This document shows, one piece after another, positions 1 to 63,975 of a DNA stretch of 64,000 bases. Below the pieces are notes generated by a model. It saw only the letters and a list, made by a program, of their open reading frames with translations. It was not told where the DNA came from and did no database searches. Position 1 is the first letter of the stretch; each line of letters opens with the position of its first letter. Source of the stretch: Candidatus Spyradenecus sp. (GTDB lineage: Bacteria; Verrucomicrobiota; Verrucomicrobiia; Opitutales; UBA953); the NCBI GenBank assembly GCA_045535075.1, contig JAZSKX010000015.1:32001-96000 (forward strand), read 5' to 3'. Both the position numbers and the translations under genes were made by a program.

Positions 1-359
1 TTACGCCGGAACGTTTCTTTGAAGAACATTTCGTGACGAATTTTTGCCCCTTGCTTTTTACGGCTGATAATCCCCGAGGGAAAAATCTTACGCCGGAGGA
101 TCTTGTTCCCGCCGAACGCAACGCGGTGCTTGCACCTTGTGATGCGTTTTTGCGAAAGCTGACGGAGTTGCTCGAACCCGAGTGGTTGGTCGGTGTGGGC
201 GCGTTTGCGCAAAAAGCCGCGATGCGTGCCTGCGACGGGCTTCCCGTGAAATATTCAACGGTGATTCACCCTTCGCCTGCTTCTCCGCTTGCCAATAAAG
301 GTTGGGCGGAAAATGCTTCGGGCGCACTTGTTCGCAACGGCATTTGGCAGGCGGACTAA
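1..359 (+). CDS. SMUG1-like uracil-DNA glycosylase, 3' part (5' end off window)
   Basis: Motifs NFCPLLF..GKNLTP, LVGVGAFA and IHPSPASP..NKGW resemble the SMUG1 family; frame is open to the left edge. Confidence 0.75.
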   Translation, partial: TPERFFEEHFVTNFCPLLFTADNPRGKNLTPEDLVPAERNAVLAPCDAFLRKLTELLEPEWLVGVGAFAQKAAMRACDGLPVKYSTVIHPSPASPLANKGWAENASGALVRNGIWQAD

Positions 360-386
360 TTCAGTTTTCTATTTTTCTGTATCGTT

Positions 387-2420
387 ATGAGTTACGCTAT
401 TTCACGTTTTAATACGATTCGCCGCAAAACGCGCGAAGTCCTCGTCGGAGGCACGGTCGGCATCGGAGGAAAGAATCCGATTCGTATCCAATCCATGACT
501 ACATCGAATACGCTTGATGTCGCGGGAACGGTTGCGCAGTGCATCCGCCTTGCGGAAGCCGGAAGCGAATTGATTCGTATTACGGCTCCGAGTGTTCCCG
601 CAGCTCAGGCTCTTAAGTCAATCAGCGAACAATTTCGTGCCGCAGGGTTCTCTCAGCCGCTTGTCGCTGACATCCACTTCCTTCCGGCTGCGGCGATGGA
701 GGCGATAGAGCACGTCGAAAAAGTGCGCATCAATCCGGGAAATTATGCGGACAAACGCTCTGCGGGAACGCGCGATTATTCCGATAAGGAATATGCCGAA
801 GAACTCGAACGCATTCACGATGCCGTTGCGCCGCTGATTCGCCGGGCAAAGGAACTCGGGCGTACGTTGCGCATCGGAACAAATCACGGCTCGTTGTCCG
901 AACGGACGATGCGGCGTTTTGGGGATACGCCGGCGGGAATGGTGGAAGCGGCGCTTGAGTTTGTCCGCATTTGTGAAGCGGAAAATTTCCGCGACATCGT
1001 GCTTTCGATGAAGTCTTCCAATCCGAAAGTTATGATTGAAGCATACCGCCTCGCCGTGGAGAAAATGAATGCCGAGCGCATGGATTATCCGATTCATCTC
1101 GGCGTGACGGAAGCCGGCGAAGGCGAAGACGCACGCATTAAATCGACAATCGGAATCGGGTCTTTGTTGGTGGACGGAATCGGTGATACGATCCGTGTTT
1201 CCCTGACGGAAGATCCCTGGCACGAGCTTCCCGTTTGCCGAGAAATTCTTTCCCGCATTCGTCCGGAAAAAATTTCGGGAAGTGTTTCCGCGAGCCCGGT
1301 TTCCGACCGAAGCGTCGATCCGCTCGAATACCATCGTCGTGAAATTGTGTCAGTAAAATTTAATGACAAATGCTCTGTTTCCGCGGGAACGCCGCCGCGG
1401 GTTTTTACGTTTGCGGATGTCGAAAAACCGCTCCCGCAAATTATTGCCGATGTGCGTGCCGCAAATTTGAAGTCGATGCCGATTGAGGGGCTTGTCCTTC
1501 CCGTTGCGACGAAATCGGACCTCGCGGCGGCCTGTGAATTGCAATGCGCGTTGGAAGATGAAATCCCAGCGTTCGTTTTCGATCCCGTGAAAGACAGCAC
1601 TCCGGAACTTTTCGAAAATTTCTGTCCTTCCCGAAAGTCCGCGTCATATATTCAGCGGCGCTTCAATCCGGCAAACGCGGAGATTATTCCCGAGTGGGTT
1701 AATATCTGCCGCCGGAAGGAAGTCGGGCTAGTCGTTGATTCCACGGCGGCGGCGCGTTCGGCGGTTTTGCCGGCGTTGCGCGATTTCCCTCAGGAAAAAC
1801 TCATTTTTACCACGAGCCGGAAAACTCCCGGCGTCCACATGGTGGGCGGTTATCGCCAGCTTGCGCAAGCACTCGCTAACGTCGGAATTCATTCCCCGAT
1901 TTGGATTCGGGCAAGCGCGAAAAACACCGTCTTGCCGTTCCCGAAAATCCCGACGGCTTCTCCCGACGAAGCGCCGACTCTGGAAGCCGCCTTGCTTGCC
2001 GGTCCGCTTCTTTGCGACGGCATCGGCGATATTATTTCCGTTGAAACCGCGGGAACGCTTTCCAAAAACCTGCAACTTGCTTACGGAATTCTCCAAGGCG
2101 CGCGCACGCGCCAGACGCGTACTGAATACATCGCGTGTCCGAGTTGCGGAAGAACGCTTTACAATATTCAGGAAACCGTTCGCGAAATCAAAGCGCGTAC
2201 ATCACATCTTGACGGTGTAACGATCGGGATTATGGGTTGCATCGTAAACGGCCCGGGCGAAATGGCGGATGCCGATTTCGGTTATGTCGGCGGGGCTCCG
2301 GGGAAAATTAATCTTTATGTTCGCAAGGAATGTGTCGCGACCGGAATCCCGCAGGCAGAAGCCGTTGAGCGCCTTATTGCTTTGATTAAAGAACACGGGC
2401 GTTGGAAAGATCCGGACTGA
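387..2420 (+). CDS. ispG: 4-hydroxy-3-methylbut-2-en-1-yl diphosphate synthase (long form with insertion domain)
   Basis: IRIQSMTT, VADIHF, RINPGN, RIGTNHGSLS, HLGVTEAG, GIGDTIRVSLT, CPSCGRT and MGCIVNGPGEM motifs. Confidence 0.97.
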   Translation: MSYAISRFNTIRRKTREVLVGGTVGIGGKNPIRIQSMTTSNTLDVAGTVAQCIRLAEAGSELIRITAPSVPAAQALKSISEQFRAAGFSQPLVADIHFLPAAAMEAIEHVEKVRINPGNYADKRSAGTRDYSDKEYAEELERIHDAVAPLIRRAKELGRTLRIGTNHGSLSERTMRRFGDTPAGMVEAALEFVRICEAENFRDIVLSMKSSNPKVMIEAYRLAVEKMNAERMDYPIHLGVTEAGEGEDARIKSTIGIGSLLVDGIGDTIRVSLTEDPWHELPVCREILSRIRPEKISGSVSASPVSDRSVDPLEYHRREIVSVKFNDKCSVSAGTPPRVFTFADVEKPLPQIIADVRAANLKSMPIEGLVLPVATKSDLAAACELQCALEDEIPAFVFDPVKDSTPELFENFCPSRKSASYIQRRFNPANAEIIPEWVNICRRKEVGLVVDSTAAARSAVLPALRDFPQEKLIFTTSRKTPGVHMVGGYRQLAQALANVGIHSPIWIRASAKNTVLPFPKIPTASPDEAPTLEAALLAGPLLCDGIGDIISVETAGTLSKNLQLAYGILQGARTRQTRTEYIACPSCGRTLYNIQETVREIKARTSHLDGVTIGIMGCIVNGPGEMADADFGYVGGAPGKINLYVRKECVATGIPQAEAVERLIALIKEHGRWKDPD

Positions 2421-5804: not shown

Positions 5805-5852
5805 AAACGTTCCCGTGAAAATCGGCACTTGCCGCACGGGAACGCTTTTTTT
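5805..5852 (+). terminator. Terminator built from an inverted pair of the dispersed motif
   Basis: CGTTCCCGTG ... CACGGGAACG followed by CTTTTTTT. Confidence 0.8.
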
Positions 5853-8123: not shown

Positions 8124-9791
8124 ATGACAGTCCATTCTTCCAATGTTGCCCGATTTCTCCGCGAGTCTGCCGAACGCGTTCCCGCCGTGTGCGCGATTCG
8201 CCTTCCCGCAGGGCGTGAGTCCGACGGCTCTATTCGCTATCGAGAGCTGAATTTTGCGGAGCTGGATCGTCATACTGCCGCTGCTGCCGAAATCTTTCGT
8301 GCCAACGGAATTGTTGCGGGAACGCGTACCCTTTTGATGGCGCGCCCGGGCTGGGATCTGATTTTATGCGCCTTTGCGCTGTTTCGAATCGGAGCTGTTC
8401 CCGTCGCGATCGACCCCGGAATGGGCTTGCGTCATTTTCTGCGTTGCGTCGAAAACACGCGCCCGGAAGCTCTTGTCGGTATTCGGCTTGCGCATTGGAT
8501 CAGCCGTTTTTTCCGAAAATCGTTTGCCTCTGTGAAAACGAAAATCGTTGTCGGGAGCCGTAAATTCAATCGGATGATTTCGGAGCTCGCGACGTCTCCG
8601 GATCTTAGAAGCGAAATTGCCGTGTGCGGCGAGGAGGAGCTTGCGGCAATTCTTTTTACCAGCGGTTCGACGGGCGCTCCCAAAGGGGTTTGTTATACGC
8701 ACGGAATGTTTGACGCACAGCAACGCATTGTGCGTGATTTTTACAAAATTGAACCCGGAGAAATCGATTTGCCGCTGTTGCCGATTTTTGCACTTTTTAA
8801 TCCGGCGCTCGGAATGACGACGATTACGCCGGAGATGAATCCGTCAAAGCCGGCGACGCTCGACCCGGAAAAAGTCGTTCGCGCGATCCGCCAAAATCAG
8901 GTAACAAATAGCTTCGGTTCGCCGATTCTTTGGCGGAAAATTGCCGAATATTGCGAGGCTCGCGGCGAAACGCTTCCGAGCGTTCGCCGTATTCTTTGCG
9001 CGGGAACGGCGGTTCATCCTTCCGTCATGGCGCTTTTGAAAAAAGTGCTTCCGAATGCCGAAATTCATTCTCCTTACGGAGCGACCGAAAATTTGCCCGT
9101 CGCCGACGTTGATGCGGAAACCGTACTCGGAGAAACCGGCATTCTTACGGCGCAAGGATTCGGCACGTGCACGGGAACAGTTGTCCCCGGCAATCGCGTA
9201 CGCCTTGTTCCCGCGTCCGACGAAGCATTTCCCGATTTCGAAACGGCGGGAACGCCGCAGGAACGTTTTCGCGGTTTCTCCGTCGGAGAAATCTGCGTTT
9301 GCGGTCCGACGACGACGCGTGCCTACGATAACAATGTGCAGGCAACCGCGTTAGCAAAAATTGTTGATTCCGCAGACGGAACGCTTTGGCATCGCATGGG
9401 CGATCTCGGCTATCTCGACGGGCAGGGGCGGCTTTGGTTTCTCGGGCGCAAAGTCGAACGCGTCGAAACAAAACGGGGAACGCTTTACACCGAAGCTTGC
9501 GAACCGATTTTCAATACGCATCCCGACGTGTTTCGCTCGGCGCTTATCGGTTTGGGAGAACGCGGAAGCGCCGTTCCCGCAATCGTTGTCGAATTGCGTG
9601 CGGGAACGCCGAAGCGCCGCCACGCCGAAATTCTCGATGAGTTGCGGCGGCTTGCGCGGGAACACTCGGTCACGCAGCCGATTACGCAGTTTTTTATTTA
9701 TCCGAAAAAATTCCCGGTCGATGTTCGCCACAATGCAAAAATTCATCGACTCACGCTTCGAAAATTTTACGAAAAAACTTCGTCTCTCTAG
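8124..9791 (+). CDS. oleC: OleC-like AMP-forming ligase (olefin beta-lactone synthetase family)
   Basis: ILFTSGSTGAPKG, SPYGATE, WHRMGDLGYLD and the C-terminal FPVDVRHNAKI typical of OleC. Confidence 0.8.
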   Translation: MTVHSSNVARFLRESAERVPAVCAIRLPAGRESDGSIRYRELNFAELDRHTAAAAEIFRANGIVAGTRTLLMARPGWDLILCAFALFRIGAVPVAIDPGMGLRHFLRCVENTRPEALVGIRLAHWISRFFRKSFASVKTKIVVGSRKFNRMISELATSPDLRSEIAVCGEEELAAILFTSGSTGAPKGVCYTHGMFDAQQRIVRDFYKIEPGEIDLPLLPIFALFNPALGMTTITPEMNPSKPATLDPEKVVRAIRQNQVTNSFGSPILWRKIAEYCEARGETLPSVRRILCAGTAVHPSVMALLKKVLPNAEIHSPYGATENLPVADVDAETVLGETGILTAQGFGTCTGTVVPGNRVRLVPASDEAFPDFETAGTPQERFRGFSVGEICVCGPTTTRAYDNNVQATALAKIVDSADGTLWHRMGDLGYLDGQGRLWFLGRKVERVETKRGTLYTEACEPIFNTHPDVFRSALIGLGERGSAVPAIVVELRAGTPKRRHAEILDELRRLAREHSVTQPITQFFIYPKKFPVDVRHNAKIHRLTLRKFYEKTSSL

Positions 9792-12631: not shown

Positions 12632-12669
12632 CGCGGGAACGCTGTTTTTACTTTGACGTTTTTGCAATT

Positions 12670-14520
12670 ATGGCTGAGAAAAAGAAAGAACAGTGTATAA
12701 ATCAGCACTGCGTGCTTATTGGAACGTATAGGTCTGGACAATTTGAATCTTGGCAAGGGTATTACAATTACCCGATTTCAGAGCAGGATGATATGAGTTC
12801 AGACCTGTATTCCATGATTGATGAGTTATGGCTTTTTTCTGGAAAAAAATCTCCGCTTTTTAGAAAAGCTCAATTTGTAGGGGTAAAGAGCAGAAATGAG
12901 TTAGTAAGGGATTACGGATATACTCCAAAAGGGGAAGGGCATGGAAAAAAGTATTTGCTCTTCAAAACAAAGCCTACGTATCTGCCGTCTAATTCGATTT
13001 CTAAAAAAGTGATTATTCGGGCCAAAGATTTCGCGCGGACACCTAGTGTAGCGAAGAAGATAAAGATTCTTCTCGCGTCTGATGATCGAAAGGATCAACC
13101 ATTGCTGGCTCAATTGCCAGAGGTGCTTTTGACCATTCCTCCAGAACGACTTTGTGTTTGTGAGGCAGCTTTTCAGATGGATTTTCTTGCCCAAATTTTC
13201 TCACCAAGAATAATATCAGTAAAAAAGAAACCCATTGCGAAAAAATGTGTAAAGTTTATTGACCTTTTTGCTGGTATTGGGGGAATTCGCAAAGGTTTTG
13301 AAATTGCCGCATCAGAGGAGGGGTTTGACTCTCAGTGTGTTTTTACGTCAGAAATCAAGCCGCATGCGGTAAAAGTTTTGATGCAGAATCATCCTGAGGA
13401 AGAGATTTATGGCGATATAACTTGTATTAACGCTGATGATATTCCAGACTTCGACTTCTTACTGGCAGGTTTCCCGTGTCAGGCGTTTTCTTCTGCAGGA
13501 AAGCGTCTCGGGTTTCAGGATACACGCGGAACGTTGTTCTTTGATGTTGAGCGAATCCTAAAAGCGAAAAAACCTAAGGGGTTCATTTTGGAAAATGTCG
13601 AAGGTTTGGTAAACCACGACAAGAGAAACCCGAATGATCGAATTGGAAATACCTTATCCACGGTTCTCGAACATTTAAGAGATTTAGGTTATAAAGTTGC
13701 GTGGCGTGTTTTGAATGCGAAGGATTTTGGTGTTCCCCAGGATCGGAAGCGGATTTACATTGTTGGCACGAAGGACTCTACTCCAGATCTGGAGAACTTT
13801 GAAGAAAAACACGCTATTGTTGAAGATGTTCTTGAATGTGGTCTTCCTCCCCAAAAAAGCCGATTCATAGATCTATTGCTTTCTCACTATAGCTTGGAAG
13901 AGCTTCATGGACGTTCTGTGAAAGATAAGCGGGGTGGTGAGAATAACATCCATAGCTGGGATATCGAATATAAGGGGGCTGTCTCCGTGAAAGAAAAGGC
14001 TCTTCTTAATGCAATACTTCGAGAAAGGCGCAAAAAGAAGTGGGCGGAAATATACGGCATTGATTGGATGGATGGAATGCCTCTTACAATTGACATGATT
14101 CGCTCTTTTTTTGACGTTCCTGGATTGACTGAAATGCTAAAAGATCTGGTAGAAAAAAAATATTTGAAGTATGAGCATCCTAAACGGAAAAGTGGTCATT
14201 CGCGGATTCAGGATTCGACTTTGCCGAAAGGATACAACATCGTCGCAGGAAAAATGTCTTTTGAAGTGAGCAAGGTGCTTGATCCTAAGGACGTTGCTCC
14301 GACATTGGTTGCAATGGATATGCAGCATCTTTTTGTTCCAGACTCTGGAGGAATTCGTCAGCTTTCTCTTCGTGAGGGGTTGAGATTCTTCGGATATCCT
14401 GAAAGTTTTAAATTTGATGTGGATCTCCATTCTGGCTATGACCTTTTAGGAAACACGGTCGTTGTTCCTGTTATTACATCCGTTGCAAATCGCGTTTTTA
14501 AAGCAATTAAACATTTGTAG
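12670..14520 (+). CDS. C5-cytosine DNA methyltransferase (NgoBV/NlaIV-like) with extra N-terminal domain
   Basis: DLFAGIGG, AGFPCQAFS, LENVEGL, PQDRKRIYIVG, KDKRGGENNIHSWD and LGNTV motifs; AT-rich DNA. Confidence 0.92.
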   Translation: MAEKKKEQCINQHCVLIGTYRSGQFESWQGYYNYPISEQDDMSSDLYSMIDELWLFSGKKSPLFRKAQFVGVKSRNELVRDYGYTPKGEGHGKKYLLFKTKPTYLPSNSISKKVIIRAKDFARTPSVAKKIKILLASDDRKDQPLLAQLPEVLLTIPPERLCVCEAAFQMDFLAQIFSPRIISVKKKPIAKKCVKFIDLFAGIGGIRKGFEIAASEEGFDSQCVFTSEIKPHAVKVLMQNHPEEEIYGDITCINADDIPDFDFLLAGFPCQAFSSAGKRLGFQDTRGTLFFDVERILKAKKPKGFILENVEGLVNHDKRNPNDRIGNTLSTVLEHLRDLGYKVAWRVLNAKDFGVPQDRKRIYIVGTKDSTPDLENFEEKHAIVEDVLECGLPPQKSRFIDLLLSHYSLEELHGRSVKDKRGGENNIHSWDIEYKGAVSVKEKALLNAILRERRKKKWAEIYGIDWMDGMPLTIDMIRSFFDVPGLTEMLKDLVEKKYLKYEHPKRKSGHSRIQDSTLPKGYNIVAGKMSFEVSKVLDPKDVAPTLVAMDMQHLFVPDSGGIRQLSLREGLRFFGYPESFKFDVDLHSGYDLLGNTVVVPVITSVANRVFKAIKHL

Positions 14521-14522
14521 AT

Positions 14523-15257
14523 ATGAAAATACTCGCTGCACAAGAAATTTACAGTAAGTTGATCAATGAAGATTGCATCTTAACTCTGAAAGGGCAGATT
14601 CAATTTCATCTTGGAGATGTTGGTATTGTTGTCCGCCAGAAAGATGTCGTGGGAAATATTATTCAGGAGTGGCTTCAGGGTTGGATGGAAAAAAGCGGAA
14701 TTGCGTATACGCTCAATTCAAACTCTCAGATGCCTCCTGATTTTTTCTTAAATCCTAACGACAAAACTCGTTCTCTCTTGGAGGTCAAGGCATTTAATCG
14801 TGATTCTACGCCTGGTTTTGACATTGCGGATTTTAGAATGTACAGCGAAGAAATCATAGAAAAACCCTATATGTTGGATGCGGACTATCTTATTTTTGGC
14901 TATCGCATGAATCCTAATGGGGTGGTGACGATAAAGGATTTGTGGTTGAAGAAAGTTTGGCAGATAACTCGACGTATGGGGAATTGGCCACTAAATCTCC
15001 AAGTGAAGGCTAAAGTTGTTCATAAAATTCGCCCAGGAGTTTGGTATAGGACTCCGAATAAGTTTAAAATGTTTGAATCATTGGAAGATTTTATTTCTGC
15101 TGTGAATCATACAGTTTGGCAAAACCCTAAAACAAAAGAGTCTTCTGGGACTTGGCTGGTGAACTTTATAAAGGCGTATAAATCTTTTTACGGAAAAAAG
15201 CTTAGAATTCCTCGTTGGGAGGATATTGAAGATAAATATTTGGTCGGTAATTCCTGA
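14523..15257 (+). CDS. NgoBV-family type II restriction endonuclease
   Basis: QKDVVGNIIQEWL, PPDFFL, LEVKAFN..PGFDIADF, KKVWQI and HKIRPG match the RE_NgoBV family as recalled; starts 2 nt after the MTase. Confidence 0.82.
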   Translation: MKILAAQEIYSKLINEDCILTLKGQIQFHLGDVGIVVRQKDVVGNIIQEWLQGWMEKSGIAYTLNSNSQMPPDFFLNPNDKTRSLLEVKAFNRDSTPGFDIADFRMYSEEIIEKPYMLDADYLIFGYRMNPNGVVTIKDLWLKKVWQITRRMGNWPLNLQVKAKVVHKIRPGVWYRTPNKFKMFESLEDFISAVNHTVWQNPKTKESSGTWLVNFIKAYKSFYGKKLRIPRWEDIEDKYLVGNS

Positions 15258-15282
15258 TTAGAAATTTCGTTATTTGTACTTT

Positions 15283-16977
15283 ATGAAAATTAGCAAAATC
15301 AAAGTTAAAAATTTTCGGTCAATACAAGATGCGGAAATAAGTGTTTCAAATTTAAATATTTTTGTTGGGCAAAATAATAGCGGGAAGACAAATTTATTTG
15401 AAGCCCTTGATTTCTTCTTTAATGGAGTCGGAAGAGGGGTTGATTTAATAGATTTAAAATATAAAAAGCATGATGAGTTAACGCTCTCTGTCGAAGTTGA
15501 ATTTAAAGGGGCTCAAGATGGACTTGCTAAAATGCAGAACGAGAAAAACAAGGCGACTCTTGAGAGAAAGATAGGTGGGAGTGATTGTGTTACACTAATT
15601 CGGCGTTCCGATGATCCCAAAAAACGTCAGATGATTGTTAATGGAGAGGAAGTGACTCCAGGTACCGGCTTTGATGCTGCTGTAAATGACTTTTTGCCCA
15701 AATTTGAGTATATAAATACGAAGCAGTACTACGATGCGGTTGCAAAATATTCAAAGACAACTCCGATGGGGATTATGCTTTCAGGAGTCTTATCTGCAAT
15801 CTTGGAGAATGACCCTCAGTACCAAAAGTTTCAGAAAACATTTCATGATCTTTTTGATGGGGAGGATTCAGGTATCAAAGCGAAGTTTGAACAAGTTGGC
15901 GTGGATGTAAAAGGGTATTTGGCAAAGCAGTTTCCGGATACAAAGAGAGTCCGATTCGAGGTACTCCCTCCTTTATTTGATGATTTGTTGAAAAATTTCA
16001 CAACGAGTGTTGATGACGGCGTTGAGACGTTTGCAGAAGATAAGGGAGATGGGATGCAGCGAGCGTTAATGCTCGCCATAATTCAAGTATACGCAGATTT
16101 TCGAAAACAGGGGGTAGATGCGGGAAAATCATTTTTATTTTTTATCGATGAGGCGGAACTTCACTTGCATCCTACAGCGCAAAGAAAATTGAAAGATGTT
16201 TTGGCGGAACTTTCTTGTAGCTCTGATCAGGTTTTTGTTAATACGCATTCGTCTGTTTTTGTTGCGGATGATTGTAGCGGACAAACAATTTTTAAGGTTG
16301 AGAAGTTGGAGGGGAGGACAGAGATAGAGATGATTGGCGACCAACAAAAGTTTGGCTTGGTGTTCGAGCTTCTTGGCGGGACTCCTGGTGATTTGCTGCT
16401 TCCACAAAATTTTTTGATTGTAGAAGGTGCTAGTGAAGTTGAATTACTAACGCGAGTCATTGGTCGGTTTTACTCGGACAAGCCTAAAATTCAGATTTTA
16501 GATGCACACGGTGATACAGGCCAGGTTGAGCGTTCCATTAACGCAATCGAGAAACTTTTCAATCCTTTGGATAAAACAATTTATGGAGACAAGTTGGTTG
16601 TTCTAATTGATTCTCCAAGCCCTGAGAGAGAAGCTGGTGTAAAACAGTTCAAAAAAGATCATAAGTCGCTAGTGAAAAGCGACCGCCTTTTTGTTTTGCC
16701 AAAGAGAGATGTTGAGCAGTGCTATCCTGATAGGTCTGATTCTATTTATGGGAGGTGGTTAAAAACACAGGGGGAAGTTGATAATATGAGCGGGAAACAA
16801 AAAAGGAATCTCGCCAAACACGTTGGGGGTAACATAACGCAGGAGGAATTTGAAACTGCATTAGGAGTCTGTTTTTGTGCACTGCAGAAATGTTGGAGAC
16901 TTTCGTTTTGCACAGACAATGGATCGGGTGAGCAGAGGAGCGCGTTCCCGCAATATGTAGCGGGAGAGGAGTCGTGA
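15283..16977 (+). CDS. OLD-family ATP-dependent nuclease (ABC ATPase + TOPRIM)
   Basis: KNFRSI, Walker A GQNNSGKT, signature GDGMQR, Walker B FIDEAELHLHP, NTHSS and TOPRIM IVEGASE. Confidence 0.85.
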   Translation: MKISKIKVKNFRSIQDAEISVSNLNIFVGQNNSGKTNLFEALDFFFNGVGRGVDLIDLKYKKHDELTLSVEVEFKGAQDGLAKMQNEKNKATLERKIGGSDCVTLIRRSDDPKKRQMIVNGEEVTPGTGFDAAVNDFLPKFEYINTKQYYDAVAKYSKTTPMGIMLSGVLSAILENDPQYQKFQKTFHDLFDGEDSGIKAKFEQVGVDVKGYLAKQFPDTKRVRFEVLPPLFDDLLKNFTTSVDDGVETFAEDKGDGMQRALMLAIIQVYADFRKQGVDAGKSFLFFIDEAELHLHPTAQRKLKDVLAELSCSSDQVFVNTHSSVFVADDCSGQTIFKVEKLEGRTEIEMIGDQQKFGLVFELLGGTPGDLLLPQNFLIVEGASEVELLTRVIGRFYSDKPKIQILDAHGDTGQVERSINAIEKLFNPLDKTIYGDKLVVLIDSPSPEREAGVKQFKKDHKSLVKSDRLFVLPKRDVEQCYPDRSDSIYGRWLKTQGEVDNMSGKQKRNLAKHVGGNITQEEFETALGVCFCALQKCWRLSFCTDNGSGEQRSAFPQYVAGEES

Positions 16978-44246: not shown

Positions 44247-45143
44247 ATGAATGACTTGACGACAAAGAGACTTGCGGTAATAAAGCAATTATACCTCCAG
44301 GGGGTAAATCAATCTTATGAAGTAGAGCCGATAAACGGATTCTCTATATTGTCATTTCACGACAGTGTCGAAATGTTTATGAAGCTTTGTGCAGAACAAA
44401 AAGGCATCCGAATAGATAGGCATACTAATTTTTCAGATTACTTTTCTAAGATTCCGGATTTGAAAGGAGGTTCCCCTATGGTTTCTTTGAACAGTAGGCG
44501 TGTCAGCTTGAAGCACAGTGGGCTACTCCCGTCGAAATTAGATATTGAAATATCGCGAAGAAATACCATGGATTTTTTCGAAGAAAATACACCAATTTTC
44601 TTTGGCAAAAGATTTGGTGAGATTTCTTTGATATCACTAATAAAGTATCCGTCGGTCTGTGAATATTTGGAAGACTCACAGGTCGCAATTAATGAAAATA
44701 AGTATGAGGAGGCGATCAAAATATCACAAGTTGCATTTAAGGAACTCCTGCATTGTCATCACGAAGAGAATTCCAAAGACTTTCTAAATCCGTTTTCTGA
44801 GGTAAAAAGTTTTACGTTTCATAAAAGCTTTTTTATAAAGCCGGAGATAGGCAAGAGGTTTGACAAATTTGTGGACGATGTATCCCTTTCTATTCCCAGA
44901 TTAGAAGAAGCCGTAAAGATAATTGGGTTTGGCATAGATTATAGACAGTATTGTAAATTCAGATTATTTACACCGATAATCTGTGTTGAATATGTCAATG
45001 ATGAGAGACAATACTCTGTTGGTGCGAGTGATGGTCGGTTGATTTTCAATCTGCAAAATGCAAGATTTTGTTTTGATTTCGTGGTATTATCGGCCCTGAA
45101 GCTCCAAGAGTTTTGTGTGGACCTCAAAAATACCATAAAATGA
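44247..45143 (+). CDS. Hypothetical protein with HEPN-like RxxxxH motif
   Basis: HDSVE and RVSLKH in a helical N-terminal domain; AT-rich, inside the hsd operon. Confidence 0.65.
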   Translation: MNDLTTKRLAVIKQLYLQGVNQSYEVEPINGFSILSFHDSVEMFMKLCAEQKGIRIDRHTNFSDYFSKIPDLKGGSPMVSLNSRRVSLKHSGLLPSKLDIEISRRNTMDFFEENTPIFFGKRFGEISLISLIKYPSVCEYLEDSQVAINENKYEEAIKISQVAFKELLHCHHEENSKDFLNPFSEVKSFTFHKSFFIKPEIGKRFDKFVDDVSLSIPRLEEAVKIIGFGIDYRQYCKFRLFTPIICVEYVNDERQYSVGASDGRLIFNLQNARFCFDFVVLSALKLQEFCVDLKNTIK

Positions 45144-45150
45144 TTTTCCT

Positions 45151-48100
45151 ATGCTTTCGCTCACTGAATCCAAGATAGAAACCTTTGCGATCGAGTTGTT
45201 GGGATGGCTCGGGTATCGCTATTTTTACGGGCCGGAGATTGCGCCGGACGGGGAAAAGCCGATGCGTGCGGCGTTCGGCGAAGTCGTCTTGGAAGCGGTG
45301 TTGCGTGAGGCCGTTTACCGCATCAATCCGGGCGTGCCGCAGGCGGTGTGCGACGAGGCGGTCAGCCGGGTGCTCCGCATCGCGTCGCCGGATTTGTTGG
45401 CGAACAACGAGCAGTTTCACCGTATGCTGACGGAGGGCGTTCCCGTGTCGGTGCATCGCGACGGTGCGGAGCGGGGCGAGTTGGTTTGGTTAGTAGATTT
45501 TGACAATCCGGAAAACAACGATTTTGCCGTCGTTAATCAATTTACGATTATCGAGAACGGGCACAACAAGCGCCCGGACGTTTTGCTTTTTGTGAACGGC
45601 TTGCCCTTGGTGGTGATTGAGCTGAAAAATGCCGCGGACGAGAATGCGACGGTGCAGAGCGCGTTCCGGCAGATTGAGACTTACAAGCAGATGATTCCGT
45701 CGCTGTTTACCTACAATGCGTTGACGGTGATTTCGGACGGCTTGGATGCGCGCGCGGGAACGCTTTCGTCGGGATTTTCCCGCATGATGGCTTGGAAGAG
45801 TGCGGACGGGAAGGCGGAGGCATCGCACCTGATCGGACAGTTGGAAGTGCTGATTCGCGGGATGTTGAACAAGGCAACGCTCTTGGACCTTGTCCGCTCG
45901 TTTACGGTGTTTGAAAAAACCAAGACGGAAGACAAGGTAACGGGGCTGACGACGATTCGCACCGTGAAAAAAGTTGCCGCGTATCACCAGTATTACGCCG
46001 TGAACAAGGCGGTGGAATCGACCGTGCGCGCAACGGGAATTAACTTGGACGATCGTTTTGTTTTGCGGGAAGATCCTGCGAAATACGGTTTAAAAGACGT
46101 GTCGGAACAGCCCCGGGGCGACCGCAAGGCGGGCGTTGTGTGGCACACGCAGGGCTCGGGCAAGTCTTTGTCGATGGTGTTTTATGTGGGCAAGGTTGTG
46201 CGCATACTGAGTAACCCGACGATTGTGGTCATCACGGACCGCAACGATTTGGACGACCAGTTGTTCGGGACGTTTGCGGATTGCCGCCAGTTGTTGCGGC
46301 AAACGCCGGTGCAGGCGGAAAATCGGGACGAGTTGAAACGCCTGTTGCGCGTGGCTTCCGGAGGTGTGATTTTTACGACGATTCAAAAATTCCAACCGGA
46401 GAGCGGGAACGTGTATGGGACGCTGACGGAGCGGAGCAATGTCATTGTAATCGCCGATGAGGCGCACCGCACGCAATACGGTTTCAAGGCAAAGACGGTC
46501 GATGTGCGCAACGAAGCGGACGAAGTGGTCGGCTCGGAAATTAAATACGGATTTGCGAAATATTTGAGAGACGCATTGCCCAATGCGACCTACTTGGGCT
46601 TTACGGGAACGCCGATTGAGGCGACGGACGTGAATACGCCCGCCGTATTCGGAAATTATGTGGACGTTTACGATATTGCTCAGGCGGTGGAAGACGGCGC
46701 GACGGTGCGCATTTTCTATGAAAGCCGATTGGCAAAGGTGGAACTGAGCGAGGCCGGACGCAACTTAATCGAAAGCCTTGATAGAGAGCTGAAAACGGAA
46801 AAGCTGGATGACGTACAGAAAGCAAAGGCGAAATGGACTCAACTTGAAGCGCTCATCGGAAGCGAATCCCGGATTCGCAACATCGCCAAAGATATTGTTT
46901 CCCACTTTGAACAGCGGCAGGAAGTATTTGAAGGAAAAGGAATGATTGTGGCGATGAGCCGTCGTATTGCTGTCGAGCTTTACGAGGCGATTATCGCTCT
47001 GCGTCCGCAATGGCACAGCGAAGATTTGTCGAAAGGTGCGATTAAGGTGGTTATGACTTCCGCTTCTTCGGACGGCACAAGTATTTCGAAGCACCACACT
47101 TCAAAAGAACAGCGGCGAACTTTGGCGGACAGAATGAAAGATCCGAAGGATGAGCTGAAATTAGTCATCGTTCGGGACATGTGGCTGACCGGATTTGACG
47201 TTCCCTGTTTGCACACGCTTTATATTGATAAGCCAATGCAGGGGCACAACCTGATGCAGGCAATTGCCCGTGTGAATCGTGTTTACAAGGATAAACCGGG
47301 CGGGCTTGTCGTAGATTATCTGGGAATTGCGTCGGATTTGAAAAAGGCGCTTTCGTTCTATTCGGATTCGCAGGGAAAGGGAAATCCCGCAGAGCAGCAG
47401 GAGCAGGCGGTTGCTTTGATGGAGGAAAAAATGGAAGTAGTTCGGCAAATGCTGAACGGAGTGGATTATTCATCGTATTTTTCGGCGGACGTTGCCAAAA
47501 AACTGTCGCTAATTCTTCACGCCGAGGATTATGTACTCGGTTTGGACGACGGGAAAAAGCGTTTTGTAAGGGAGGTTTCGACGCTTTCAAAGGCGTTTGC
47601 CATCGCGATTCCGCACGACAAGGCGATGGAGGCGAAGGACGAGATTTCATTTTTTCAGGCGGTAAAAGCGCGCCTTTGCAAATTTGATATAACTTCATCC
47701 GGTAAAACGCTTGAAGAAATTGAGACTACAATACGGCAAGTTGTCGATAAAGCTTTAGTTTCGGAGCAGGTCGTCGATTTATTTGACGCTACGGGAATTA
47801 AAAAGCCGGATATTTCCATCCTTTCTGAAGAGTTCCTCATGGAACTCAAAGGGATGCAACACAAGAATATTGCATTGGAGGTTTTGAAGAAGCTTCTGAA
47901 CGATGAGATTAAGGCCCGGATGCGGCGAAATCTCGTGCAAGGAAAAACGTTGATGGAAATGCTCGAAAACTCTATCGCCCGGTATCACAACAAGGTGGTT
48001 ACTGCCGTGGAAGTTATCGATGAACTGATCGCGTTGAGCAAACACATTGTCGGACAAGATAAAGGCGCGGAAGAACTCGGCTTATCCGGATACGAATATG

Positions 48101-48372
48101 CGTTCTACTCTGCGGTCGCCGACAATCAGAGTGCCGTGGACTTAATGGGGCAGGATAAACTGCGCGAGTTGGCGGTAGCGTTGACGGAAACGATTCGGAA
48201 AAATTCTTCGATTGATTGGGAAATAAAGGAAAATGTCCGCGCTAAAATGCGGGTCGCGGTCAAGCGGCTTTTACGGCGCTACGGCTACCCGCCGGACATG
48301 CAACTACTGGCAACCGAAACGGTCATCAAGCAGGCGGAAATGATTTCGGCGGAATTGATAAAATCCGCATAA
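45151..48372 (+). CDS. hsdR: Type I RM restriction subunit
   Basis: RPD..FVNGLPLVVIELKN, WHTQGSGKS, TDRNDLDDQL, IADEAHR, GFTGTP, MWLTGFD and QAIARVNR. Confidence 0.96.
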   Translation: MLSLTESKIETFAIELLGWLGYRYFYGPEIAPDGEKPMRAAFGEVVLEAVLREAVYRINPGVPQAVCDEAVSRVLRIASPDLLANNEQFHRMLTEGVPVSVHRDGAERGELVWLVDFDNPENNDFAVVNQFTIIENGHNKRPDVLLFVNGLPLVVIELKNAADENATVQSAFRQIETYKQMIPSLFTYNALTVISDGLDARAGTLSSGFSRMMAWKSADGKAEASHLIGQLEVLIRGMLNKATLLDLVRSFTVFEKTKTEDKVTGLTTIRTVKKVAAYHQYYAVNKAVESTVRATGINLDDRFVLREDPAKYGLKDVSEQPRGDRKAGVVWHTQGSGKSLSMVFYVGKVVRILSNPTIVVITDRNDLDDQLFGTFADCRQLLRQTPVQAENRDELKRLLRVASGGVIFTTIQKFQPESGNVYGTLTERSNVIVIADEAHRTQYGFKAKTVDVRNEADEVVGSEIKYGFAKYLRDALPNATYLGFTGTPIEATDVNTPAVFGNYVDVYDIAQAVEDGATVRIFYESRLAKVELSEAGRNLIESLDRELKTEKLDDVQKAKAKWTQLEALIGSESRIRNIAKDIVSHFEQRQEVFEGKGMIVAMSRRIAVELYEAIIALRPQWHSEDLSKGAIKVVMTSASSDGTSISKHHTSKEQRRTLADRMKDPKDELKLVIVRDMWLTGFDVPCLHTLYIDKPMQGHNLMQAIARVNRVYKDKPGGLVVDYLGIASDLKKALSFYSDSQGKGNPAEQQEQAVALMEEKMEVVRQMLNGVDYSSYFSADVAKKLSLILHAEDYVLGLDDGKKRFVREVSTLSKAFAIAIPHDKAMEAKDEISFFQAVKARLCKFDITSSGKTLEEIETTIRQVVDKALVSEQVVDLFDATGIKKPDISILSEEFLMELKGMQHKNIALEVLKKLLNDEIKARMRRNLVQGKTLMEMLENSIARYHNKVVTAVEVIDELIALSKHIVGQDKGAEELGLSGYEYAFYSAVADNQSAVDLMGQDKLRELAVALTETIRKNSSIDWEIKENVRAKMRVAVKRLLRRYGYPPDMQLLATETVIKQAEMISAELIKSA

Positions 48373-48376
48373 TAGT

Positions 48377-48401
48377 GTTCCCGTGAGTTTTCTGCGGGAA
48401 T
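48377..48401. terminator. Hairpin between convergent hsdR and uvrA made of motif copies
   Basis: GTTCCCGT-gagttttct-GCGGGAAT. Confidence 0.55.
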
Positions 48402-48412
48402 TTGCGGAGGTT

Positions 48413-51241
48413 TTACAGAAACTTGGCGGTGGGGGTGGAGGCGCGGGAGCGAAGTTCCTCGGGCGTTCCCGTGAAGATGAGTTGACCGCCTGCGTTCCCG
48501 CCGCAGGGACCGAGCTCGACGATCCAATCCGCGCAGCGCACGACGTCGCTGTTGTGTTCGATAACGATGAGCGTGTGCCCGGCGTCGCGCAGTTTAAAAA
48601 GCAAATTCATGAGCAGGCGGATGTCGTCCCAATGCAGGCCCGTCGTCGGTTCGTCGAGCAGGTAAAGTGTGCGTTCCCGCTTGCGCTTGGAAAGCTCGAG
48701 CGCGAGTTTGAGGCGTTGCGCTTCGCCGCCGGAAAGGGTCGGCGCGGGTTGCCCGAGTTTCAGATAGCCCAGCCCGACTTCGTCGAGCGTTGTAAGTAAA
48801 TTTCGGATACTCGGTTGAGCGCGGAAAAACGTGCACGCGTCGGCGACGGTCATATCGAGCACTTCCGCGATGTTCAGCCCTTTGAAAAGCACTTCGAGTG
48901 TTTCGCGGTTGTAGCGCGCGCCGCGGCAACTCGGACACTCAACCCAGGTTTCGCCGAGAAACTGCATGTCGAGCGCGATTTGCCCTTCGCCCTGGCATTT
49001 TTCGCAGCGTCCGCCGCGTTTGTTAAACGAAAATCTTCCCGCGTCGTAGCCGCGCATTTTGGCGAGCGGCGTGGCGGCGTAAAGTTTTCTCAACAAGTCA
49101 AAAATCCCGGTAAACGTTGCCGGATTCGAGCGCGGCGAGCGCCCGATAGGCGCTTGGTCAATGCGAACGAAACCTTCAAAATTTTCCAATCCGTCTATTC
49201 CTGCGTGCTTGCCGGGAACGCATTTCGCACGATTGATTTTGCGCGCGGCGGCGTTGCCGAGAATGCCGTTGACGAGCGTGGATTTGCCCGAGCCGGAAAC
49301 GCCGCAGACAACGGTCAGCGCGCCGCACGGGAACGCGACATCGATGTTTTTCAAATTGTTTTCCGCCGCGCCGCGCACGGTAAAAAATCGCTTCGCGGGA
49401 ACGCGCGGAAAAACTTCGGTGAGCTCACGGGAACGCGCGTCCGATGAAGTATTCAGAAATTGAGCCGTGCGTGATTTCCCTTCGGCAAGGCATTCGGGGA
49501 GCGTTCCCGAAAAGACGAGCGTGCCGCCTTGCGTTCCCGCTCCGGGACCGATTTCTACGACGTGATCCGCCGCCAAAATCGTGTCGCGGTCGTGTTCGAC
49601 AACGAGAACGCTGTTCCCGCGTTTGCGCAAATCTTTCATCTGCGCAATCAGCCGCGCGTGGTCCGCCGGGTGCAAGCCGATGCTCGGTTCGTCCAAAATA
49701 TAAGTTACGCCGACGAGGCCCAAGCCGAGTTGCGCGGCAAGGCGCACGCGCTGAACTTCGCCGCCGGAAAGCGTCGAGTAGGCGCGATTCAGCGTCAGGT
49801 AAGAAAGCCCGGTTGTATCCAAAAATCGGAGACGTTTTTCCAAGCCAGCGCGCGCGTCTTCCACGGGCGCAACTGCGGGAACGCTTTTCAGATTTTTGAC
49901 AAAATCAAGCGCGGCGGGAACGCTCATCGCGAAAAAATCGCCGACGGATTTTCCGCCGAGTTTCACGGCGAGTGCGCGCGGATTCAGGCGCAATCCGCCG
50001 CACGCAGCGCAGGGCGCGGAATGCTGAAACGCGAGTAAACGCGTGCGCAGAAGCAGGCTCGATGTCGAGGTTGCCGTTTTTTTCAAGTCGGCGAGCACGC
50101 CTTCGAAGGGGCGCGGCGCGGGCTTGCGGCGACCGTTTTTCAACAGGAATTCTTTTTCTCCGCTCCCGAAAAGGATGAGCTTTTGCGTTCCCGCGTCGAG
50201 TTTTTCCCAAGGCTCTTTCAGTGAAAACGGCACTTGCTCGGCGAGCTGGCGCAGCCACGCGTTGCGCTGGGTAATCATTTTTTTCGAGCCGTAGCGCCAA
50301 GGCTTGATCGCGCCGTCTTTGAGCGATTTTTTCGGGTCGGGAACGATGAGTTCGGGTAAAAATTGCGGTGTTTCGCCGAGTCCGCCGCACGCGGGGCACG
50401 CGCCGTCGGGGTGGCTTTCGGAAAAATTTTTCGGCGAGAGTGCCTCGTAGGTTTTTCCGCAGATTGTGCAGGAAAAATCGAGGCGAAGGGGAATTTCCTT
50501 TTCTTCTGCGGGAAGCAGGGCGAAGGCGCGGTTTTTGCCTTCGCGAAAGGCGAGTTCGAGCGAGTCGGCAAGGCGGGAACGCGCGTCGGCGGAAACGACG
50601 AGGCGGTCGACGATGAGATCGAGTGCGAGGACTCCTTTTTTTTCAAACTTGGGCAATTCGTCGTCGAGGTCGAAAATTTCGCCGTCGATGCGAATGCGCT
50701 GGAAACCGCGCCGGCGGAGGTTTTCGAGCTCGTCGTCGAGTAGTTTTCGTTTAATTTGCGTGTAGGGAGCGCCAAGGATGAGTTTCGTTCCCGCGGGCAG
50801 GGCGCAGAGTTGTCCGAGGCAATCGTCGAGCGTGCGGCGCGTGATTTCGCCGCCGTCGTCCGGGCAAAATTGCGTTCCCGCGACGGACCAGAGCAGGCGG
50901 GCGTAGTCGGCGATTTCGGTGGCGGTGGCGACGGTGGCGCGCGGGTTGTTGTTGGCGGAGCTGCGTTGTTCGATGGCGATGACGGGCGAGAGTCCGTGGA
51001 TGAAATCGACGTCCGGGCGCGGAATTTGCTCCAGATTCGCGCGCATTTTTGCCGAAAGGCTTTCCAAATATTGGCGTGCGCCCTCGGCGTAAATTGTGTC
51101 GAACGCGAGCGAGGATTTCCCGGATCCGGAAACTCCGGTAATTACGACGAGCTTTCCGCGCGGGATCCGAAGCTCGATGTTCTTCAGATTGTGTTCCCGC
51201 GCGCCTTTGACGTGAATTGTTCCCGGGGAAATTTCGCTCAC
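48413..51241 (-). CDS. uvrA: Excinuclease ABC subunit A
   Basis: [24 protein letters not shown], zinc fingers, LSGGE twice and DEPTTGLH. Confidence 0.96.
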
Positions 51242-55720: not shown

Positions 55721-56750
55721 TTTGAATTTCCTCCAGCATGACGGCGACGTTTTCGATGCAGGCTTGCGGTTGAATGCCGTGTCCGAGATTAAAAATAAAT
55801 CCGCTTTCTCCGTGCATTTCGTCAAGAATTTCCCGTGTGCGTTCCCGTACGATTTGCGGATTTTTCAAATTTAAGATGCACGGATCGAGATTGCCCTGAA
55901 GCGCGAGGCGCGTTCCCGCAGGAAGGTTTTTACGGATGCCGGAAAGCGAATGCGTCCAGTCGACGCCGAGGACGCTTGCGCCGGTTTTTGCGACGGAGCC
56001 GGCAAGATGAGCCATGCCTTTTGCGAAAACGATAACGGGTACGTTTGCGGGAACGGCGGCGATGATTTTACGAATCCAGCGCAGTGAAAGTGCTTCGTAT
56101 TCCCGTGCGGTACAAAGCGAAGCCCAGGAGTCAAAAAGCTGAACGGCGTCAACGCCCGCCGCAATTTGCATTTGTAAGTAAGCGATAATTGCGTCGGAAA
56201 GTTTTTCCATCAGCGCGTTAAAATCAGCGGGATGTTCGGCGGCAAGCTCTTTAATTTTTGAAAATTGTTTGGAAGAGCCGCCTTCCACCATATAGGTCGC
56301 CAGTGTCCACGGCGTTCCCGCGAATCCGAGCAAGGCTCGCGTGCCGCCGAGGCGTTCCCGTACGATTTTTTGCGCGGCGGGAACGTAGGCGAGTTTTTCG
56401 TAAACTTCATCGGCGGTTCCGAGACGTCGGATTTGTTCGGCGGAATCGAGTGTAAATTCCATGGAAATGCCGCCGTTGCCGAAGCGGTAATTTTGCCCGA
56501 GGGCTTCGGGAATGACGAGGATATCGCTGAACGTGATTGCCGCATCCAGCGTTTCAAAGCGTTGCACGGGCTGGAGCGTTACCTCTGCCGCCAGTTCCGG
56601 CGTTTTTACCAAAGTGAGAAAATCGTAGCGTTCTTTGAGCGCGCGATATTCCGGCAAATAGCGTCCGGCTTGGCGCATAATCCAAACAGGCGGGCGATCC
56701 GTCGGTTCACAACGGGCGGCGGCGAGAAAACGTTCGCGGGAAGAAATCAT
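55707..56750 (-). CDS. hemE: Uroporphyrinogen decarboxylase
   Basis: PVWIMRQAGRYLPEY, FSDIL, FDSWA, QGNLDP and NLGHGI. Confidence 0.95.
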   Translation of the reverse strand: MISSRERFLAAARCEPTDRPPVWIMRQAGRYLPEYRALKERYDFLTLVKTPELAAEVTLQPVQRFETLDAAITFSDILVIPEALGQNYRFGNGGISMEFTLDSAEQIRRLGTADEVYEKLAYVPAAQKIVRERLGGTRALLGFAGTPWTLATYMVEGGSSKQFSKIKELAAEHPADFNALMEKLSDAIIAYLQMQIAAGVDAVQLFDSWASLCTAREYEALSLRWIRKIIAAVPANVPVIVFAKGMAHLAGSVAKTGASVLGVDWTHSLSGIRKNLPAGTRLALQGNLDPCILNLKNPQIVRERTREILDEMHGESGFIFNLGHGIQPQACIENVAVMLEEIQNAKR

Positions 56751-63285: not shown

Positions 63286-63291
63286 TTCTTT

Positions 63292-63975
63292 ATGCTCCCG
63301 GATTTATCGAAAATTCAAACCGTTTTCTTTGATTTGGACGGTACGCTGATTGATAATTTCAGCGCCATTCACAAATGCTATGCCGATATTGCGCGGGAAA
63401 TGGGGCTGATCCCGAAAAGCTACGAGCAGTTGCGCGCCACCGTCGGCGGATCAATTACGCTCACGTTGTCCCGACTCATCGGCGACGACCTCGCCGAAGA
63501 AGGCGTGCGGCGTTTCCGGGCGCATTTTCCCGAAGTAATGTTCGACGACGTTTTCGTTTTGGACGGGGTTGAATGGATTTTGAAAAAGCTACGGGAACGC
63601 GGTATCAAAACCGCCGTTTTTACCAACAAAGAACATTCGGCAACGCTCGCGCTTTTGGAGTATTTGAACTTGTCGGCGCTTGTTGACGGCGTTTTCGGAA
63701 CGAATCTTCCCGACATGCCTTGGCGAAAACCGAACCGCGAGTATTCCGAGTATGTTTTGAAAAAAATGGGCGTTCCTGCAGAAAACGCGATGCTTATCGG
63801 CGATTCGCCGTTCGATGTCGGAGCCGCGCGAATTGTCGGTATGCCCGTTGCTTGCGTAACGACGGGAACACACATGCCGGAAGCGCTTATCGAATGCCTC
63901 GGGACGCAGGAACTTGTTTTCCCGAACATGTTTGCTTTGGGACGGGATTTGTTTAATTTTAGTCCGCAAAATTAA
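63292..63975 (+). CDS. HAD family phosphatase (Gph-like)
   Basis: FFDLDGTLID, FTNK, RKP and IGDSPFDV. Confidence 0.9.
   Translation: MLPDLSKIQTVFFDLDGTLIDNFSAIHKCYADIAREMGLIPKSYEQLRATVGGSITLTLSRLIGDDLAEEGVRRFRAHFPEVMFDDVFVLDGVEWILKKLRERGIKTAVFTNKEHSATLALLEYLNLSALVDGVFGTNLPDMPWRKPNREYSEYVLKKMGVPAENAMLIGDSPFDVGAARIVGMPVACVTTGTHMPEALIECLGTQELVFPNMFALGRDLFNFSPQN

Follow-up and report, generated by a model that had tools for sequence, protein, structure and literature searches.

The question raised by this locus is what maintains a short asymmetric word at thousands of sites in a bacterial genome. The locus is a stretch of 64,000 nucleotides, called the window below and analysed over its whole length (C12:32001-96000 of the assembly of genome G000, 1.949 Mb in 18 contigs, our reference throughout). 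The word is the 8-mer CGGGAACG, with reverse complement CGTTCCCG, a 7-mer core CGGGAAC/GTTCCCG and an extended 9-mer form, GCGGGAACG. An initial annotation of the window had suggested a DNA uptake signal. We find the word confined to one genus of gut Opitutales and conserved as DNA over most of that genus and, judging from the sequence evidence, we give a probability of roughly 0.5 to the reading that Y-R-CGGGAAC-G-C is an independently evolved uptake word, of the same type as the DNA uptake sequence (DUS) and the uptake signal sequence (USS).

Uptake sequences are described in two families of Proteobacteria, Neisseriaceae and Pasteurellaceae, in the available text of 10.1101/2025.10.24.684340 and PMC7811141. 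Our literature searches found no description of the CGGGAACG word or of uptake sequences in Verrucomicrobiota, the literal-word matches listed being primers or unrelated; the initial annotation likewise knew of none.

A short word in excess of every codon null

105..63869, both strands, mostly in genes: field of (G/A)CGGGAACG(C), with 155 8-mers and 201 7-mer cores (CGGGAAC/GTTCCCG)

These counts agree with the approximately 150 8-mers and 195 7-mers first claimed for the window, and 100 dinucleotide-preserving shuffles gave a mean of 5.1 and a maximum of 10 for the 155 occurrences of CGGGAACG/CGTTCCCG. Over the 18 contigs of G000, CGGGAACG is the commonest of all 8-mers, with 5,159 copies (2,527 and 2,632 on the two strands), while GCGGGAACG occurs 3,244 times and the longer GCGGGAACGC 1,614 times. 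Each contig longer than 10 kb carries 2.0-3.2 copies per kb, the 7-mer is absent from only 29 of the 822 genes of at least 900 bp, and the spacing is near-Poisson (coefficient of variation, CV, 1.09), with a slight deficit of short gaps and a surplus of long ones. DUS and USS occur at roughly 1 per kb, so that the density here is at or above theirs.

According to our own crude gene call (1,503 genes, 89% of the genome), 4,389 8-mers are wholly coding (2.54 per kb) and 766 non-coding (3.51 per kb), the non-coding DNA being the denser. All six reading frames are occupied genome-wide (sense 419/1476/732, antisense 300/289/1179), which, together with the strand counts, bears out the strand balance and six-frame use noted initially. 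Two frames dominate, nevertheless (sense frame 1 and antisense frame 2), and two giant genes outside the window, at C5:125845-140217 and C8:185333-198142 (4,791 and 4,270 codons), carry the word in the sense orientation only (61:0 and 47:0). This one-sidedness probably reflects a protein-level constraint in a repetitive protein, and such cases are what one would expect if the word were a by-product of codon usage, of amino acid or base composition, or of a dispersed repeat family.

We therefore compared the coding sequences with nulls of increasing stringency. The 4,395 coding 8-mers stand against 164 +/- 10 when codon order is shuffled, 494 +/- 14 when synonymous codons are shuffled with the protein kept, 1,587 +/- 32 under a pooled dicodon model (a first-order codon Markov model), and 3,472 +/- 37 when an Euler shuffle preserves the dicodons of each gene exactly. 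The last is nearly degenerate, as it retains the word's own hexamers within each gene, and the excess is still about 25 standard deviations. Under the pooled dicodon model, the 10-mer was observed 1,324 times for 229 +/- 12 and the 12-mer 230 times for 21 +/- 6. Coding counts being above every codon and dicodon null, the enrichment does not vanish; it holds genome-wide, and under the very dicodon-preserving shuffle that the initial annotation had named as the test able to overturn it.

A logo built from 6,920 GGGAAC sites contains information from about -4 to +7 only, with random flanks and the consensus Y-R-C-G-G-G-A-A-C-G-C. The absence of information in the flanks indicates a short word, and not a repetitive extragenic palindrome (REP), a miniature inverted-repeat transposable element (MITE) or another repeat element. 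Single mismatches to GCGGGAACGC at positions 2 to 6 (CGGGA) are at background (at position 2, observed/expected 8/9, 0/4 and 8/8). Enrichment is seen in the flanks, for A instead of G at position 1 (observed/expected 592/40), G instead of A at position 7 (192/34), and A or T instead of G at position 9 (191/18 and 146/21), and position 10 tolerates any base. The word thus has a strict core and graded flanks, and the statement that its one-mismatch variants are common holds for positions 1, 7 and 9 and fails for the CGGGA core. Given that all nulls are exceeded, that non-coding DNA is denser, that flanks share no similarity, and that the word keeps one form in genomes of 45-59% GC while sister genera with a similar composition lack it, the probability of a compositional or repeat origin appears to us practically negligible.

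Conservation of the word as DNA

If a force acts on the word itself, synonymous positions should be better conserved inside the word than outside. Third positions identical to G000 were counted in codons with an unchanged amino acid, inside and outside the word (Fisher p), in sets of 39-55 orthologous genes per genus genome. Retention is the proportion of G000 8-mers that are still perfect, for the word and for other 8-mers. Species are called dense or thin according to their density of the word.

G009, dense: 49 genes, 61% amino acid identity; inside 193/253 = 0.76, outside 0.50, p 5e-17; word 8-mers kept 52/143, others 8%
G003, dense: 49 genes, 65% amino acid identity; inside 315/356 = 0.88, outside 0.54, p 3e-43; kept 93/175, others 10%
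G015, dense: 42 genes, 66% amino acid identity; inside 246/288 = 0.85, outside 0.56, p 3e-25; kept 73/142, others 13%
G001, thin: 40 genes, 84% amino acid identity; inside 0.62, outside 0.62, p 0.86; kept 20/147, others 22%
G013, thin: 55 genes, 84% amino acid identity; inside 0.65, outside 0.59, p 0.04; kept 30/171, others 19%
G002, thin: 48 genes, 81% amino acid identity; inside 0.57, outside 0.58, p 0.68; kept 28/184, others 17%
G014, thin: 39 genes, 66% amino acid identity; inside 0.48, outside 0.50, p 0.56; kept 4/112, others 8%
G019, outgroup: 17 genes, 45% amino acid identity; inside 12/38 = 0.32, outside 0.41, p 0.32; kept 1/29, others 2%

In the dense species, 36-53% of the G000 word 8-mers are retained, against 8-13% of other 8-mers. 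In the four thin species the synonymous excess is gone or marginal and retention falls to 4-18%, although three of them are closer relatives of G000. One gene of the window shows the same pattern on its own:

48413..51241, minus strand: uvrA, motif-dense with 16 8-mers, used for the tree and the orthologous-site analysis

Its word codons lie at the less conserved positions of the protein (0.37-0.52 identity to outgroups, versus 0.54-0.61). The conservation of synonymous sites inside the word indicates a force on the DNA word itself, acting at thousands of sites and in most of the genus. This force is switched off, or nearly so, in two lineages, G014 and G001/G002/G013.

One genus and two decays

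The relatives of the UvrA protein are uncultured Opitutales (Verrucomicrobiota) of ruminant and other animal guts, in agreement with the Verrucomicrobiota-like host proposed initially, and stand beside the metagenome-assembled genomes (MAGs) Candidatus Spyradenecus and Candidatus Spyradosoma (genus names as given in the available text of PMC8035907). Gut or faeces metagenomes from 9 studies, those of sheep and goat among them, contain near-identical DNA.

GCGGGAACG is enriched in every one of the 19 genus genomes (340 to 5,581 copies, versus 12-59 for a reversed control word). Six genomes of other genera in the same family, taken in a first draw, contain 23-82 copies, and none of the remaining 382 of the 401 Opitutales genomes drawn (133 genera, 41 families) is enriched, with at most about 240 copies. 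Dense species carry 1.7-3.3 9-mers per kb. The consensus Y-R-CGGGAAC-G-C is identical in G009 (45% GC), G003 (59%) and G015 (58%), which have about 5 7-mers per kb, versus 0.12 per kb in the outgroup G019, and the uvrA loci of named MAGs, at 46-69% GC, are likewise dense. The thin members (G001, 746 9-mers; G002, 732; G013, 760; G014, 340) bear the same word more sparsely. Taken over 50-100 kb per genome, the k-mer spectra of G001, G002, G013, G014, G009, G003 and G015 revealed no dialect. The survey of relatives that the initial annotation had called for thus confines the word to a single genus, with one form in the seven members sampled. Separately, two genomes of family f17 of the order (G188 and G244) show a mild excess of GCGGGAACG over the control, 154/80, with a strand asymmetry, and 119/119, versus 31/39.

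In a UvrA tree (FastTree, LG+gamma; 16 genus genomes and 7 order-level outgroups, with G005, G017 and G018 left out), the genus is monophyletic. The dense pair G008 and G009 forms its deepest branch, followed by G014. The thin species G001, G002 and G013 form a nested clade whose sister consists of dense G011 together with G000, G016, G010 and G007; this node has a support of 0.80 and the larger clade one of 1.00. In the codon alignment of uvrA, many sites are common across the genus, G008 and G009 included (positions 361, 699, 1807, 2017 and 2881); the same sites have 1-4 mismatches in thin species and mostly 3-8 in outgroups. Shared ancestral sites and nested thin lineages together indicate that high density is ancestral and has decayed twice.

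Orientation of the word

A word placed throughout the genome could also be a polar site of the Chi type, or of the KOPS/AIMS type (FtsK-orienting polar sequences and architecture-imparting sequences), guiding recombination repair or chromosome segregation. In its favour, CGGGAACG is an over-represented G-rich octamer whose choice of strand correlates weakly with GC skew (86 bins of 20 kb, Spearman 0.64). In bins of positive skew the word is found 1,292 times forward and 1,120 times reverse, and in bins of negative skew 946 and 1,206 times, which amounts to a co-orientation of 54.7:45.3 (2,498/4,564). However, by our own calculation a word with two more G than C is expected at about 56:44 for a skew of about 0.06. 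The 54.7% observed is not above the approximately 56% due to base skew, and polarity of the Chi or KOPS kind is therefore absent. The two bins of extreme bias correspond to the two giant genes mentioned above. Known polar sites are strongly skewed. As a density of 2.6 per kb and the inverted pairs described below do not fit a polar site either, we hold this explanation to be very improbable.

Inverted pairs and terminators

The order CGTTCCCG then CGGGAACG within 20 nt occurs 136 times and the reverse order 15 times, so that pairing is orientation-specific. Within 30 nt there are 181 pairs, 142 of them mostly intergenic and mainly downstream of genes, including 54 between convergent genes. The intergenic pairs have the layout AAAAAG-CGTTCCCG-loop-CGGGAACG-CTTTTT, with A- and T-run flanks, and these approximately 140 close inverted pairs are predicted intrinsic terminators. 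Four pairs in the window were listed:

5809..5843, plus strand: pair GTTCCCG...CGGGAAC with a T-run, predicted intrinsic terminator downstream of the pyruvate phosphate dikinase gene
24166..24194, plus strand: pair GTTCCCGCAGAG...TTTGCGGGAAC plus ATTTTTTT, predicted intrinsic terminator after a PEP-CTERM gene, facing recQ
9573..9607, plus strand: inverted pair without T-run, inside or at the end of an AMP-binding enzyme gene
56354..56384, plus strand: inverted pair without T-run, inside the uroporphyrinogen decarboxylase gene (minus strand)

The first folds as RNA at -26.7 kcal/mol (z -5.75), a value equalled by none of 200 shuffles. The second forms a 12-pair stem at -23.7 kcal/mol (z -5.38) and ranked second in a terminator scan of 5-25 kb. 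An abutting pair at 20079 gave no stable hairpin (z 0.02). Pairing of the word in terminators, claimed from the window, is thus found in two window hairpins and, as orientation-specific pairs, over the whole genome.

These hairpins raise another possibility, namely that the word is the half-site of a hairpin of the Ssn/NTS type, whose single-stranded form is the substrate of a small GIY-YIG nuclease limiting transformation. According to the available text of PMC11893778, the Neisseria NTS stem is ATTCCCGC/GCGGGAAT, one base off the stem found here, GTTCCCGC/GCGGGAAC, and this system is linked to transformation; the genome, for its part, contains about 180 hairpin pairs. The NTS/dRS3 elements are described there as repeats about 30 bp long that lie between genes and have their own small GIY-YIG nuclease, and only 2% of NTS repeats are inside genes. 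In contrast, about 94% of the copies here are single words and 85% are in genes, and the hairpins have variable loops and the A/T-run flanks typical of terminators. A small, Ssn-like GIY-YIG nuclease was not found in G000, where the only GIY-YIG domain is that of UvrC. Despite the likeness of the stems, we consider this origin highly unlikely.

Viral contigs were examined as carriers of the hairpin and rejected: the matches, at least 120, are close to the number that we estimate for chance, and 58 of the 80 loci examined hold only 2-3 8-mers. Two phage contigs of IMG/VR at 32-33% GC (L211 and L226) have a repeated intergenic AACGGGAACGGGAAC made of tandem GGGAAC units, which has no relation to the word of the genome and may be a regulatory repeat of the phage. 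A third IMG/VR locus (L184, 15 kb, 50% GC) contains 1.7 words per kb in the customary context, with a typical terminator pair among them, and is probably a prophage or a chromosomal fragment of the genus filed as viral.

Word-poor islands

Only six stretches of at least 3.5 kb lack the 7-mer in 1.95 Mb, and three of the six are at 40-43% GC. One of these deserts and a second, motif-poor stretch are in the window:

12633..16943 (C12:44633-48943), no strand: motif desert of 4.3 kb, 40% GC, with a C5 methylase, an NgoBV-type endonuclease and an AAA ATPase
42082..48463, no strand: motif-poor stretch with 4 8-mers in 6.4 kb, 48% GC, with a Type I specificity subunit, an Abi_C protein, an open reading frame (ORF) and a Type I restriction subunit

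Judged by its gene content, the desert is a predicted restriction-modification island, and the low-GC, motif-poor stretch continues from it to about 20 kb, with an HpaII-type endonuclease. The defence genes at 12670-18171 are a C5 cytosine methylase, an NgoBV-type endonuclease and an AAA_15/AAA_21 ATPase, with the HpaII-type endonuclease on the opposite strand. In the second stretch, the word is present in hsdM and absent from hsdS and the inserted genes. The contigs of other strains break off with unlike sequence at 48407/48413 (metagenome runs X1 and X7), which indicates that this stretch is probably strain-variable. At this Type I restriction-modification locus (40737-48372), the Abi_C gene and an unannotated ORF of 298 codons lie between hsdS and hsdR.

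Comparison with known words

The initial annotation stated that the word matches neither DUS nor USS, and the genome contains 6 copies of the Neisseria word GCCGTCTGAA, 9 of AAGTGCGGT and 10 of ACAAGCGGT, the last two representing the USS. The likeness lies in the genomic signature. The DUS of Neisseriaceae has the minor pilin ComP as its reader; like it, the word is non-palindromic and short, occurs on both strands and in several frames, pairs in terminators, is specific to a clade and is scarce in acquired DNA, and a type IV pilus, a secretin, ComEC and DprA are encoded here too. Unlike it, the word is of higher density, belongs to another phylum, is accompanied by no match to the ComP_DUS domain in a search whose controls were also silent, and has a single form in the members sampled, where the available text of PMC3630211 describes several dialects in Neisseriaceae. 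With the USS of Pasteurellaceae it shares a mostly coding location, at the less constrained protein positions, and a strict core with graded flanks; the logo, however, has no AT-rich flanking segments, the phylum differs, and ComEA was not found. For the USS itself, the receptor has not been established experimentally and the minor pilin ComN is predicted, as far as the available text of 10.1101/2025.06.16.659825 goes.

HIP1 of cyanobacteria (highly iterated palindrome 1, GCGATCGC) is also a hyper-abundant octamer, conserved at orthologous sites beyond neutral expectation in the available text of PMC5861425. It is, however, a palindrome recognised by orphan methylases, whereas the word here is asymmetric, has no matching methylase that we could find and is spaced in the near-Poisson manner given above. 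HIP1 has 83 copies in G000 and the E. coli Chi 17, and neither these nor the DUS and USS words are enriched in it. Chi and KOPS/AIMS resemble the word as over-represented G-rich octamers and differ from it in that the word is far denser, is arranged in inverted pairs and has no polarity beyond skew.

Biased uptake or another reader

How could such a word be spread and kept? Where thousands of sites are each only weakly selected, the single process known to us that can both propagate a short word and preserve it is biased uptake coupled to recombination. In the model that we propose, double-stranded DNA carrying the word would be bound at the cell surface by a receptor, probably a component of the type IV pilus machine; pilus retraction would draw this DNA through the secretin; ComEC would pass one strand inward, and DprA and RecA would recombine it into the chromosome. 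Word-bearing fragments being taken up more often, alleles with the word would replace alleles without it. Such a molecular drive would spread the word wherever the protein tolerates it, keep the copies intact and leave newly acquired DNA without it, and the inverted pairs would have been co-opted as terminator stems. That biased uptake is the driving force we infer from the abundance, the clade restriction, the non-polarity, the conservation and its loss, and the machinery. More tentatively, at a little under even odds, this would be the third independent sequence-specific uptake system and the first outside Proteobacteria, with a receptor unrelated to ComP, without ComEA, and with its drive lost in two lineages.

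Much of the machinery is present. G000 encodes ComEC and DprA, a cluster that unites PilC with one PilT-like ATPase and two ATPases of the PilB type, and five pilin-like genes, four of them minor-pilin-like and clustered beside RuvX with RecJ nearby, the fifth a pilin of 141 amino acids. A cluster running from PilM to a tetratricopeptide repeat (TPR)-secretin is on the window's contig, about 18 kb upstream of the window. No competence gene was found among the annotated genes of the window itself, as the initial annotation had remarked. ComEC is present in 41/41 relatives, and DprA and the three pilus ATPases are present without internal stops in 19/19 genus genomes.

Several results weigh against uptake. 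Competence genes are, to our knowledge, near-universal in bacteria, so that their presence is merely permissive. ComEA was not found in G000 with PF12836 and TIGR00426, the sole HHH_3 domain being that of Tex; a small ComEA-like ORF is present in 2 of 41 order genomes, and the lack is thus order-wide. The ComP_DUS domain has no match in G000, its model being also silent in all 14 control genomes. The 141-residue pilin was considered as word receptor and rejected, since it is hypervariable among close relatives and has no ComP-like fold match. Lineages that have lost the drive should, under an uptake model, have a broken uptake gene, and those that decayed keep the uptake genes tested. Among 40 listed of 538 variable places between strains in four metagenome runs, 2 fall in the word for about 2.3 expected, no depletion in a comparison of very low power. 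Finally, recombination in uvrA among four close genomes is only suggestive (15/47 informative sites in conflict, runs test p 0.09).

The pilin just mentioned (C5:99026-99451, locus L136:3026-3451, outside the window) is found full-length only within the genus, and its 12 homologue clusters all reach an identity of at least 63%. Its identity is 46-48% with the copies of G016, G007 and G010, whose UvrA is 97-99% identical to that of G000, and 90-91% with the copy of the more distant G001/G002/G013 clade. This pattern looks like an exchange of major-pilin alleles or strong diversifying selection, and not like a conserved receptor. Its AlphaFold model (pLDDT 71.7) has no fold match in PDB at E <= 0.001, and its PDB sequence matches span the N-terminal helix only.

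As for the decayed lineages, they retain ComEC, DprA, the pilus ATPases, a secretin, two minor pilins and the 141-residue pilin with open frames, except for one TAA flagged inside the match of G001 to a 228-residue pilin. Gene loss as the cause of decay was therefore discarded, no tested gene being missing from G014 or from G001/G002/G013. A second secretin (about 145 bits, about 790 residues) is present in G001, G002, G004, G012, G013, G014 and G018, accompanied, except in G012, by an extra PilB/GspE-type ATPase that other genus members lack. From the genes alone, the two are predicted to form a second system, for secretion or for a pilus, that some members of the genus have lost. As a correlate of density they were rejected, since dense G004, G012 (secretin) and G018 have them as well as the low-density species.

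The uptake signal proposed initially is therefore upheld in its tested sequence-level predictions (a dense, non-polar word, found in all frames, in terminators and in one clade, and missing from islands), and not in its receptor or ComEA, which were not found. As neither a ComP-type receptor nor ComEA was found, and no gene loss explains the decay, we infer the uptake function and do not assert it.

Alternatively, the word may be the site of another abundant factor (nucleoid, repair or methylation-linked), the second option of the initial annotation, or a non-polar mark of self, apart from uptake, and owe its maintenance to selection or to biased repair or conversion, as debated for HIP1, a conserved, hyper-abundant octamer whose function is unsettled in the available text of PMC5861425. 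Conservation at the DNA level and clade restriction need only a conserved reader, and not uptake. The failure to find an uptake receptor in G000, and the competence genes kept by the decayed lineages, also fit such a factor. However, no candidate reader was identified for it. The Type III Mod-family methylase (PF01555) has no match in G000, the three N6 methylases of G000 are Type I HsdM-like, and Eco57I-type enzymes do not track density, being below cut-off in dense G003, G006, G008, G009 and G012 and present in 4/4 low-density species. Methylases were consequently rejected as readers, no family tracking the word. A patch-repair bias of the Vsr kind would guard one position and not all eight, and selection at each of about 5,000 sites would be very weak, while drive accounts for maintenance. 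Terminator pairs and island deserts are, in addition, classic traits of DUS and USS, and HIP1 has itself been linked to natural transformation in the available text of 10.1101/2024.09.10.611283 and PMC13756078. We consider this alternative possible but somewhat doubtful.

Significance

If uptake is indeed the force, a third case, with a new word and in another phylum, would mean that uptake sequences evolve repeatedly, and would provide a fresh system for studying the origin of uptake specificity. The genus is favourable in this respect, the word being very dense and unchanged across a wide range of base composition. Two lineages no longer maintain it and constitute a built-in control for finding the reader protein; if the drive has indeed been lost in both, comparative genomics might suffice to identify the receptor. 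Donor DNA supplied with the word might open these uncultured gut bacteria to genetic manipulation, and the word also serves as a sharp marker, both in binning and in the recognition of foreign DNA within their genomes. Should uptake not be the force, a genome-wide word with a reader of its own would still have been defined, which is of interest in itself.

Other observations in the window

The pyruvate phosphate dikinase gene (2627-5779) encodes an enzyme extended at its C terminus by a basic, low-complexity tail of about 145 residues, unusual for a metabolic enzyme, which has a sub-threshold match to the histone-H1-like HC2 family (33 bits for a cut-off of 40). At 58427 and 60913, all four metagenome runs have one base fewer, which may correspond to assembly indel errors or to strain differences; position 58427 is the last base of a glycoside hydrolase 123 ORF.

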